DNA from: a virus
Lineage: Duplodnaviria > Caudoviricetes
Direction: 5' to 3' (one strand)
IMG/VR virus record: IMGVR_UViG_3300020045_003023
Location: 1 to 36,430 of that record
Length of the DNA: 36,430 bases
The notes beneath the pieces were generated by a model. That model saw only the letters and a program-made list of their open reading frames with translations. It was not told where the DNA came from and made no database searches. How positions within the stretch are numbered: the stretch's first letter is position 1; every line of letters begins with the position of its first letter. This document shows, piece after piece, positions 1-36,430 of this stretch. Made by a program: the position numbers and the translations under genes.

Positions 1-121
1 GATGCCGGCCGGCGCGGCATATCGTGTGACGATGCCATGGGGGCGCTGAAGATGACGCGCCCAGGGGCAAGCATACTGCTCGGCCATCTGGTGCGCAAAG
101 GACTTGCGCGCCGCGAGCGCA
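1..121. repeat. Direct terminal repeat, copy 1 (identical to 36310-36430); circular assembly overlap
   Basis: GATGCCGGCC...CGCGAGCGCA is repeated exactly at both ends, and a reading frame continues across the join. Confidence 0.95.
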
Positions 122-165
122 GCGGACTAGTCGTGCGCTGGTACTACGTGGAGCTTGGACAATGA
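1..165 (+). CDS. 3' part of junction-spanning small winged-helix (ArsR/MarR-like) DNA-binding protein
   Basis: Joined to 36211-36309 it reads MMKLKKTLAALKNIPQECFPISWSMAVAMGVLIDAGRRGISCDDAMGALKMTRPGASILLGHLVRKGLARRERSGLVVRWYYVELGQ*. The HTH plus wing pattern is 'MTRPGASILLGHLVRKGLARRERSG'. Confidence 0.7.
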   Translation, partial: DAGRRGISCDDAMGALKMTRPGASILLGHLVRKGLARRERSGLVVRWYYVELGQ

Positions 166-265: not shown

Positions 266-670
266 ATGATTATCGTGAACCTGACCCAGCACCCGGCCAG
301 CGCCGAGCAATTGGCCGTCGGTGTGGTAGACCTGCCATCGGAGCAACGCGCCCTGCTGGTCCACTCCCTGACAGTGGACACGCTGCCTACCCTGTCGGAG
401 ATCGTGGAGCGCTGCGAGACTGTCGCAGCACTGGCCGTGAACAACGGCCTTGGTGCGGATGAGGGCAATGACCCGCACCCGACGGCGGCCATGATCGGGG
501 GCGCGCCATGGATGATGCGCGCTCTGGAAGACGCCCTGCTGGATCAGGGCATCACTCCGGTTTATGCGTTCTCCGTCCGGGAGAGCGCTGAGCAAACCCA
601 GCCGGACGGAAGTGTCCGGAAAATGGCCATGTTCCGGCATGTTGGCTTCGTGCAATGCGGCGCTGAGTAA
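266..670 (+). CDS. Csx20-like (CARF-related) protein; candidate cyclic-oligoadenylate ring nuclease / anti-CRISPR
   Basis: GGAAGGAG RBS before ATG 266. Motifs NLTQH..EQ..DLP, AMIGG and GITPVYAFSVRES..DGSVRKMAMFRHVGF parallel the Csx20 pattern (FSH..EQ, VLIQG, GLIPVYATTKRVS..KSVFKHVRF) as I recall it. Confidence 0.6.
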   Translation: MIIVNLTQHPASAEQLAVGVVDLPSEQRALLVHSLTVDTLPTLSEIVERCETVAALAVNNGLGADEGNDPHPTAAMIGGAPWMMRALEDALLDQGITPVYAFSVRESAEQTQPDGSVRKMAMFRHVGFVQCGAE

Positions 671-33665: not shown

Positions 33666-35440
33666 TGACCCTGCGCCCATACCAGCTGCGCAGCGCAGAC
33701 GCCATCATCAATCACGTACGGCGCAGCACTGCGCCGTGCTTGATCGAGGCAGCAACCGGCGCAGGCAAAAGCCACATCATCGCGCACGTTGCGCAGTGGC
33801 TGCACAAGCACAGCGGCAAGCGCGTTTTGTGTACTGCGCCGAGCGCGGAACTTGTGACACAGAACCGCGAGAAATATCTAGCAACTGGGAACCCTGCGAG
33901 TATTTTCAGCGCAACCGCTGGCGGAAAATGTCTCAAGCATCCGGTGATTTTTGGCACGCCGCTGACGATAAAAAACAGCGTCGAAGCGTTCGACGCGCGA
34001 TACTGCGCTGTGATCATCGACGAGGCGCACGGGATAACGCCAACCATCCGCGAGCTCGTGGACGCGATGCGCACGGCGAATAAAAACCTGCGCATCATCG
34101 GCATGACTGCCACCCCGTACCGCATGGGTGACGGCTACATCTACGGGCGTCACGGCGATACAGTGCTGAGCGATGACTATGCCGCTGAGCCTTTTTTTGC
34201 CGAGCTGGTAGACAGGATCACGGCGCAAGAGCTGATCCAGATGGGCTACCTGACCGCTCCGCTTGCGCACGATCCAGCGACGCACTATGACACATCGGCA
34301 CTAGAGCGCAGCAGCACAGGCAGCTGGACTGCGGATAGTGTGGATCGCGCGTTCACCGGCCAAGGGCGTCTGACCGCTGAGATCGTCGCTGAGGTAGTGG
34401 AGCTGTCGCGCGATCGTCTGGGGGTGATGTTTTTCGCGGCGTCTATCAAGCACGCTCAAGAGGTGCTAGCCAGCCTGCCGCCAGCGCTTGCCCGGCTGGT
34501 GACCGGCGAGACAAGCGCCGCCGAGCGCGCAAAAGTTGTGTCAGATTTCAAATCGCGGAAATTCAAATACCTGGTCAATGTCGCGGTTTTCACGACCGGA
34601 TTTGACGCCCCGCACGTTGATGTAATCGCGCTGCTCAGGCGCACGGAAAGCGCGGCACTGCTACAGCAAATTATCGGGCGCGGCCTGCGCTTGAGTGATG
34701 GCAAGCAAAATTGTCTGATCCTGGACTACGCCGAAAATATTTCAAATCAAGAGCTAGACGATGATATTTTTTCTCCAAAAATCCGTGCGAAAAAGAACGG
34801 CGAGCCAGGGATGCCGATCAGTGCGCGATGCCCGCTGTGCAGTGTGATCAACAAGTTCGCGGCCAGGCCAAACCCGGACGGCTACGCTGTGGATGAGTTC
34901 GGCTACTGCCTGGATCTGACGGGTGCGCAACTGCCGTTGCCTGCGCATTTCGGCCGGCGCTGCTGGGGTGCAGACAGACGCACTGGCGAGCGATGCGGCT
35001 ACCGTTGGACACTGAAAATCTGCGACCACTGCGCACACGAAAACGACATCGCCGCTCGGTACTGTGAAAAATGCCGAGGCGAATTGGTTGATCCGAACGA
35101 AAAACTTGTGCGAGATTTTAAGCGCATGAAACGCGATCCGTCAGCGCTCAGCACTGATGCCGTGATCCATGCGGACGGCATGAAAACCCTGAGCCGAAAA
35201 GGTGATGAGATAATCCGCGTTGACATCCGCACGGAGTACCGCACGTTTCCAGCGTGGTTCACACCGACGTTTCGAAAAAAATGGGTGCTGCTGTGCCGCG
35301 CGCTGGATATATCGACAGACAGCACGCCGGCGGAGGTTTCAATTCTCGCCGACTGGTCGAAGATCAAAACCGTGTCAGCGAAAAAGGACGGCGATTTTTT
35401 TACAATTTTTGCATTTAACGAGCCGGAGGACGCACTATGA
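33665..35440 (+). CDS. Superfamily 2 (DEAH) DNA helicase with C-terminal Zn ribbons
   Basis: LRPYQ, ATGAGKS, DEAH, TATP, TGFDAP, QIIGRGLR and CxxC pairs. Confidence 0.95.
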   Translation: MTLRPYQLRSADAIINHVRRSTAPCLIEAATGAGKSHIIAHVAQWLHKHSGKRVLCTAPSAELVTQNREKYLATGNPASIFSATAGGKCLKHPVIFGTPLTIKNSVEAFDARYCAVIIDEAHGITPTIRELVDAMRTANKNLRIIGMTATPYRMGDGYIYGRHGDTVLSDDYAAEPFFAELVDRITAQELIQMGYLTAPLAHDPATHYDTSALERSSTGSWTADSVDRAFTGQGRLTAEIVAEVVELSRDRLGVMFFAASIKHAQEVLASLPPALARLVTGETSAAERAKVVSDFKSRKFKYLVNVAVFTTGFDAPHVDVIALLRRTESAALLQQIIGRGLRLSDGKQNCLILDYAENISNQELDDDIFSPKIRAKKNGEPGMPISARCPLCSVINKFAARPNPDGYAVDEFGYCLDLTGAQLPLPAHFGRRCWGADRRTGERCGYRWTLKICDHCAHENDIAARYCEKCRGELVDPNEKLVRDFKRMKRDPSALSTDAVIHADGMKTLSRKGDEIIRVDIRTEYRTFPAWFTPTFRKKWVLLCRALDISTDSTPAEVSILADWSKIKTVSAKKDGDFFTIFAFNEPEDAL

Positions 35441-35838
35441 AATTCCCAGACTGGTTTGAAGTTTTTGGAGATCAATCGTTTCGCGGAGAATGTCCAAGCG
35501 AAGCCGTTGAGCAAGTGACTTTTTTTGCTGAGCTTGGCCGCAGGCGGCCTGCGCTGCGCATGATAGCCATCCACCCACGAAACGAAGGAAAACGCACGCA
35601 CGGGCAGGCGGCACGGCACAAGGCTGAGGGCATGACCAAAGGAGCGGCCGACATCATCATCCCGGGGCGACCGTCGTTTGTGTGTGAGCTTAAGCGCAAA
35701 GACCACACCCAGAGCCGCTGGCAGAACGGGCAGCTTGAGTATCTTGCAGGATGTGATACCCAGGGCGCGTTTGTGTGCGTCGCGCTCGGCTGGGAGGCAG
35801 CACTTGAGGCTGTCGAGGAGTGGTATGCTGCCGGCTGA
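35437..35838 (+). CDS. VRR-NUC nuclease (Holliday junction resolvase-like)
   Basis: E..EQ, HPRNEG, GAADII, CELKR, Q.EYL. Confidence 0.88.
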   Translation: MKFPDWFEVFGDQSFRGECPSEAVEQVTFFAELGRRRPALRMIAIHPRNEGKRTHGQAARHKAEGMTKGAADIIIPGRPSFVCELKRKDHTQSRWQNGQLEYLAGCDTQGAFVCVALGWEAALEAVEEWYAAG

Positions 35839-36136
35839 TCATCACCCCCACGACGCGCGATGGCTGCGCGACCAGCTAGCCCAGATCCCAGCAAGTATGC
35901 GCGCGCGCGTGGCCCAAAAATATGCTGACCGATACTCGGATATCGTCAGCACAGAGCGCGCCAGTGGCCAGCCGCGGCGCATGATCGCTGCTGAGTCAAC
36001 AGCCCGCAGGGAGTGCAATGAGAGATTGAGATTATTTATAATCAAGCTGTTGACACAATCAAGCTGTGTGCTAACATTAACACATACACACAAGGCCACA
36101 AGAGCGTCCAACTACTCAAAAAGGAGAAAATCATGA
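35825..36136 (+). CDS. Hypothetical protein
   Basis: GAGGAG RBS before ATG 35825; the 3' end runs through the downstream promoter. Confidence 0.55.
   Translation: MLPADHHPHDARWLRDQLAQIPASMRARVAQKYADRYSDIVSTERASGQPRRMIAAESTARRECNERLRLFIIKLLTQSSCVLTLTHTHKATRASNYSKRRKS
36040..36077 (+). promoter_or_regulatory. Strong sigma70-like early promoter with direct-repeat operator
   Basis: TTGACA(36050)-N16-TAACAT with extended TG; AATCAAGCTGT at 36040 and 36057. Confidence 0.7.
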
Positions 36137-36210
36137 AACTTTTCTGGATTATGACGGGCACAAAACTATCGGGCTTAACAAGATGATCAGAAATTGATGA
36201 GGAGCAAAAA

Positions 36211-36430
36211 ATGATGAAACTTAAAAAAACCTTGGCAGCACTCAAAAACATCCCGCAGGAGTGTTTTCCAATCAGCTGGTCCATGGCGGTTGCCATGGGG
36301 GTGCTGATAGATGCCGGCCGGCGCGGCATATCGTGTGACGATGCCATGGGGGCGCTGAAGATGACGCGCCCAGGGGCAAGCATACTGCTCGGCCATCTGG
36401 TGCGCAAAGGACTTGCGCGCCGCGAGCGCA
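36211..36430 (+). CDS. 5' part of the junction-spanning winged-helix protein (continues to 165)
   Basis: GAGGAG RBS, ATG 36211, open frame into the terminal repeat. Confidence 0.7.
   Translation, partial: MMKLKKTLAALKNIPQECFPISWSMAVAMGVLIDAGRRGISCDDAMGALKMTRPGASILLGHLVRKGLARRER
36310..36430. repeat. Direct terminal repeat, copy 2
   Basis: Identical to 1-121. Confidence 0.95.

Follow-up and report, generated by a model that had tools for sequence, protein, structure and literature searches.

A phage-encoded member of a mobile-element branch of the Csx20/MJ1673 family, a candidate ring nuclease against type III CRISPR

What might a 134-amino-acid (aa) protein, likened by eye to the CRISPR-associated protein Csx20, be doing in a phage that has no CRISPR system? 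AcrIII-1 (DUF1874/Crn2), AcrIII-2 (SAVED), and viral Crn4 are viral proteins that destroy cyclic oligoadenylates (cOA) and so disarm type III CRISPR, and a preliminary description of the DNA studied here had proposed the 134-aa protein as a new ring nuclease of this kind. The window, that is the whole stretch analysed, is the 36,430-nucleotide virus record IMGVR_UViG_3300020045_003023. It is a complete phage of 36.4 kb with a 121-bp terminal repeat (1–121 = 36310–36430), and it encodes P22-like virion proteins, a primase, a helicase, Sak4, and RecE; the best identity of its terminase is 42%, to that of Pseudomonas phage AH02. The phage had been described as free of cas genes, and this was upheld by a six-frame search with 19 Cas baits, which gave no match, and by the lack of a CRISPR array.

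The gene occupies positions 266–670 of the plus strand, with a ribosome-binding site read from the sequence (AAGGAG, 253–258) 7 nt 5' of its ATG. Its 134-aa open frame contains every motif for which it had been singled out, namely NLTQH..EQ, AMIGG, GITPVYAFSVRES, and DGSVRKMAMFRHVGF. A chance frame is excluded because 584 of 649 candidates scored E ≤ 1e-3 and because the AF2 model of the protein, a compact alpha/beta structure, reached a pLDDT of 93. Judged by such comparisons, the gene is genuine and its product is a true relative of Csx20.

The likeness to Csx20, described in PMC12409355 as a ring nuclease that acts on cyclic tetra-adenylate (cA4) in type III CRISPR, was borne out by NCBIfam, PADLOC, PF27247, and profile–profile alignment, all of which agree. 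Among NCBIfam profiles, Csx20 (NF040559) alone matched the 134-aa protein at E < 0.05 (E 2e-7, residues 89–129 only), and at 31.4 bits this match falls short of the equivalog cut-off of 70 bits; the same profile matched 66 of 67 diverse clade members, the best E among the 67 being 4e-11. The PADLOC Csx20 profile gave an E of 4e-8. PF27247 (MJ1673) is annotated, in a precomputed resource, on the query and on all 120 relatives among the matches listed, and likewise on named CRISPR Csx20 proteins; Atlas clusters are 83–100% PF27247 (TM 0.87, named MJ1673) and 60–82% viral. Sequence searches of a local copy of Pfam-A, of PHROGs, and of the PDB returned no match for the protein. When the query profile was aligned by hhalign with 12 CRISPR Csx20 proteins, drawn from Campylobacterota and one of them seen in a full III-A locus, the alignment was full-length (114 columns, probability 96.3, E 1.5e-9), at an identity of about 20%. 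In a quick tree of 93 rows, a long branch with a support of 100 split the clade from canonical Csx20. Because PF27247 and the residues described below are shared and the branch is long and separate, we assign the protein to the Csx20/MJ1673 family, in a branch of its own that is found mainly on mobile elements.

Which residues are shared was read from 233 clade proteins and 120 canonical ones, the latter being the top matches of one profile and hence a narrow sample. Conservation in the clade and in the canonical set, respectively, was 97 and 100% for H9, 98 and 100% for Q15, 100 and 100% for R105, 98 and 88% for K119, 100 and 100% for F123, and 100 and 98% for H125. The full set common to both groups is H9, Q15, G79, Y100-A101, R105, E109, K119, F123, H125, and F128. 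At the predicted cOA site, with its conserved His, Arg, Lys, and Glu residues, H9, Q15, R105, E109, K119, and H125 are shared and S8 and R129 are not. We regard H9, R105, K119, and H125 (codons 290–292, 578–580, 620–622, and 638–640 of the plus strand) as candidates for a common predicted cOA site. The preliminary description had pointed to an N-terminal His and to a C-terminal Arg and His; H9 and H125 are indeed kept, whereas R124, the Arg of the FRH motif, lacks conservation among CRISPR Csx20 proteins.

Canonical S8, TT102-103, R127, and R129 are replaced in the clade by Q, FS, G, and V, respectively, and the pocket may therefore differ. The changes at S8, T102, T103, and R129, all of them invariant in active Csx20, would suit a protein that binds cA4 tightly and cuts it slowly or never, as some Csx15 proteins do; PfCsx15 sequesters cA4 (PMC13148439). 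The same paper presents such a sponge as ill-suited to type III CRISPR, because cOA levels are high, and H9, R105, K119, and H125 are all retained in the 134-aa protein. Sequestration in place of cleavage is, in our estimate, unlikely.

The predicted structure was less distinctive. A Foldseek search of the PDB with the AF2 model returned nothing at E ≤ 1e-3, and no structural match of the model reached a Z score of 8. In a wide structure search, racemases ranked top (Z 6.5) and SAVED and CARF chains followed at Z 5.0–5.8, all of them weak matches. In a second structural look, the CARF domain of Cam1 came first, again weakly (Z 6.0, rmsd 3.7, 110 aligned), with Cap4 SAVED, Csm6, Can2, Cad1, and Sis0455 at lower ranks and the Crn1 protein Sso2081 at Z 5.0 (rmsd 5.9, 106 aligned). 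The model thus fits a CARF-derived fold, short of proof. We also noted that in 17 of the best 150 representatives the domain is present twice or three times per chain (e.g. P0122, P0124, P0126, P0134, P0137, P0139), often with one copy lacking the His and with long acidic tails; these chains are possibly single-chain pseudo-dimers. One two-domain relative, P0122, folded with a pLDDT of 93 and a pTM of 0.57, and had no SAVED-like match above Z 5.0.

The branch is separate, very large, and mostly on mobile elements, and gene 266–670 is one ordinary member of it. At 50% identity, 1,714 clusters matched, and of the pattern matches, 143 of 180 in viral contigs, 575 of 595 in metagenomes, and 48 of 113 in genomes were confirmed. 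Four phage records and 43 plasmid records matched the query, most of the plasmid matches being weak. The canonical Csx20 pattern found two viral loci among 25 matches, a rough contrast given that the patterns differ between the groups, and canonical Csx20 exceeded its cut-off in none of 401 Burkholderiales genomes. Among the individual loci, one viral contig holds two copies of the gene (L056, 3904–4299 and 6001–6396), and a degenerate relative without H9, R105, and H125 is carried by conjugative Pseudomonas plasmids of the pCAR1 type (L240, 4983–5342).

Phage copies of csx20 are already in the literature. Of 28,114 phage genomes, four had Csx20 (PMC12409355), and csx20 homologues were found in Aca14-regulated operons, with a proposed role in counter-defence (PMC13551039). 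Both the phage copies and the anti-CRISPR idea were therefore published before, and the word 'new' in the preliminary description does not stand. Downstream of a truncated clade member, phage Pm86 has three genes, the first RHH-like, the second encoding 106 aa, and the third Csy2-like; this arrangement equals the csx20–aca14 layout described in PMC13551039. Since four phage records match the query and the Pm86 copy has the published layout, both papers probably saw the same branch. The literature searched contained no assay of a phage Csx20.

Does the branch occur where type III CRISPR occurs? Cas baits from two loci, a III-A and a III-D one, matched at 3 of 47 genome, 0 of 80 viral, and 0 of 80 metagenome loci of relatives (many of the metagenome loci being short). 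The three genome loci (L107, L119, L120) are type III-D loci, and in each the clade gene stands directly before an NE0113-type CARF gene; L119 and L120 are near-identical, and L119 has a 30-repeat array. In the quick tree, L107 and L119 form a group (support 89) nested within the mobile branch, and this nesting suggests a possible capture by a host. Both stretches, L107 7797–9144 and L119 7920–9648, come from Hyphomicrobiaceae. With scores below what NCBIfam needs to name them (20 bits in L119), the III-D copies point to a possible undercount of ring nucleases in loci of this kind. Apparent arrays in two metagenome loci (L233, L236) proved to be coding repeats instead of CRISPR.

Across 42 carrier genomes, Cas10 exceeded its cut-off in 12 and a III-D locus was present in three more; carriers without Cas10 over the cut-off numbered 14 of the 29 outside Patescibacteria and all 13 within it. 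In Burkholderiales, an order assigned here from record names and GTDB taxonomy, Cas10 over the cut-off was found in 4 of 6 carriers vs 15 of 200 sampled genomes from which the seed had been left out (Fisher p 7e-4), a comparison of only six carriers, mostly MAGs, unmatched for habitat. A Fisher comparison of the 12 of 29 carriers with this background was set aside as taxonomically unmatched. In the cultured strain of Rhodoferax antarcticus, one contig bears a copy of 61% identity, surrounded by small phage-like genes, and a second contig bears a III-B locus that comprises two CARF genes and a Cas10 with GGDD.

Several of the copies in the 13 Patescibacteria carriers (L092, L093, L098, L099, L103, L104, L106, L108, L111, L112, L114, L115, L117) are chromosomal, with clpP-, rny-, trigger-factor-, and TrmB-like genes (identified by eye) close by. 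The phylum is not a general carrier: apart from the seed, none of 300 random genomes had a copy. No published work on Patescibacteria and ring nucleases was found, and a literature search under 'MJ1673' gave nothing of use. Such copies amid housekeeping genes, the long branch away from CRISPR Csx20, and the lack of Acr neighbours (Pfam Acr or Aca profiles matched none of 123 immediate neighbour genes in viral loci, 10 of which match any family, and no known acr gene lies near 266–670 in the phage) would be in keeping with a branch that has diverged to an unrelated job, e.g. binding RNA or a linear nucleotide, without any role in immunity. Against this stand the identical polar residues fixed in both branches, the members that adjoin CARF genes in CRISPR loci, and the acr-type layout in Pm86, and we hold such a divergence to be very unlikely.

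A second gene may be connected with the first. On the plus strand at 1433–2041, a 202-aa protein of no known family is encoded, the relatives of which usually lie directly upstream of a Csx20-like gene elsewhere. Its 35 relatives share invariant H6, G7, Y11, D58, S61, Y123, E125, and W137, and searches of family profiles (Pfam, PADLOC) and of the PDB gave no match. Kin of this gene accompany the closest relatives of gene 266–670: they occur in 14 of 216 clade-gene loci (one contig being counted twice), usually with overlapping stop and start codons, and are translationally coupled to the Csx20-like gene at L004, L125, L159–L161, L163, L167, L174, L180, L241, and L244. In an independent viral search that yielded six loci with a relative of the 202-aa gene, the Csx20-like gene was directly next in three, about 4.7 kb off in one, and absent from the fetched stretch in two. 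The 202-aa protein is thus a possible partner of the Csx20-like protein. A presumed motif likeness had suggested an ADP-ribosyltransferase, an idea that found no support: Pfam, PDB, and PADLOC gave no match, and hhalign against three DUF952 proteins gave a probability of 0.5.

This coupling in the closest relatives raises a different substrate: the protein, possibly with its 202-aa partner, might act on another nucleotide signal, which could be the cA3 used by CBASS or Panoptes-type systems, or a novel one. CRISPR Csx20 cuts cA3 at 10 µM (PMC12409355), many carriers lack Cas10, all 13 Patescibacteria included, and SAVED domains are among the fold matches. The clade is nevertheless found in type III-D loci and enriched in Cas10-bearing hosts, and the 202-aa partner is missing from most loci. 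We consider a signal other than cA4 improbable, about to the same degree as sequestration.

The surroundings of gene 266–670 bear on when it would be expressed. An HTH gene had been placed upstream, and such a frame is present: an 87-aa winged-HTH gene runs on the plus strand from 36211 through the terminal-repeat join to 165 (36211..36430 + 1..165). The early promoter that was also proposed fares less well, for a sigma-70-like match does exist (TTGACA-16-TAACAT with a TG before the –10 element, plus strand, 36050–36077, 10 of 12 consensus positions), but one such site was observed vs 0.6 expected from shuffles, so the label 'early promoter' on this consensus match is unproven. On the circular map the order is sigma-70-like site, winged-HTH gene, and gene 266–670, the site lying about 525 nt upstream of the last. 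Overlapping the site is a direct repeat of 11 bp (36040–36067, copies starting at 36040 and 36057), which has no further copy in the window within one mismatch and is a possible operator for the winged-HTH protein. A frame of 17 codons, preceded by an AAGGAG site, lies between the promoter-like match and the HTH gene (plus strand, 36133–36186), and the small-gene cluster also encodes a RyR-domain protein (plus strand, 2029–2259; PF02026, E 7e-11). The plus strand showed no terminator-like site in 1–2700 or 35400–36430. The winged-HTH protein resembles MarR_2 below the Pfam cut-off (E 5.6e-4), and no relative of its gene adjoined a family member in the loci fetched for comparison; it therefore gives no Aca-type support, and an Aca role for it is not supported.

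Collectively, the reading we favour, with a probability of about 0.6, is that of a ring nuclease: the 134-aa protein, as a dimer, would degrade cA4 and thereby counter type III CRISPR. The Csx20-like protein would be made early in infection and would pair into a CARF-like dimer; the dimer would bind and cut cA4, its presumed substrate, by means of H9, R105, and H125; and, with cA4 lost, the effectors of a host that presumably has type III CRISPR would remain off. Of this, the analysis itself established family membership, the conserved His, Arg, and Lys residues, the compact alpha/beta model, and residence in a cas-free phage. We counted for it the III-D loci beside a CARF gene, the Burkholderiales Cas10 excess, the III-B locus of R. 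antarcticus, and the Pm86 layout, and against it the score of 31 bits vs 70, the identity of about 20%, the long branch, the residues replaced relative to canonical Csx20, the weak structural matches with racemases on top of the wide search, the absence of Pfam Acr or Aca matches among the 123 neighbours in viral loci, and the Cas10-less carriers. An anti-type III role for the protein is plausible.

Newly observed here are branch members next to a CARF gene in type III-D loci (3 of the 47 loci from genomes), the Cas10 excess in Burkholderiales carriers, the 202-aa gene that travels with the closest relatives, and the 13 Cas10-less Patescibacteria carriers. Should the branch cut cA4, viral ring nucleases would gain a third or fourth class, and a very large one: the 1,714 clusters (50% identity) and 143 viral-contig matches counted here stand against four phage genomes in print (PMC12409355). 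A more speculative picture, which we think quite unlikely, is that this branch, and not AcrIII-1, is the viral weapon used most widely against type III CRISPR (>1,700 clusters, in phages and plasmids) and that hosts have taken it back into III-D loci; that the sub-branch of this phage forms a two-gene anti-signalling unit with a His-Tyr-Glu enzyme; and that Patescibacteria use the branch to silence the alarms of the cells they live on. The 134-aa protein itself is a convenient test object, being small, having the full set of conserved residues, and having a close relative in cultured R. antarcticus, which has its own III-B system.

How does the protein compare with known systems? Like Csx20 (NF040559; PF27247), it belongs to the same Pfam family, is of the same size, aligns over its full length, and has H9, Q15, G79, YA, R105, K119, F123, and H125. 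Unlike Csx20, which reads FSH, QGDFG, YATTKR, and RFR, the clade protein reads TQH, GGAPW, YAFSVR, and GFV; it is about 20% identical, scores under the NCBIfam cut-off, and is encoded by a cas-free phage, its activity being predicted only. As with the phage and prophage csx20 genes in the literature (PMC12409355, PMC13551039), gene 266–670 is Csx20-like, stands alone on a mobile element, and has a proposed counter-defence role; by contrast with the csx20–aca14 operons, it has a winged-HTH gene and a 202-aa candidate partner and no RHH/Aca14 gene. AcrIII-1, AcrIII-2, and viral Crn4 are of other families, and the 134-aa protein matched none of them in sequence searches of Pfam, NCBIfam, PADLOC, and the PDB, yet the role proposed for it is the same as theirs.
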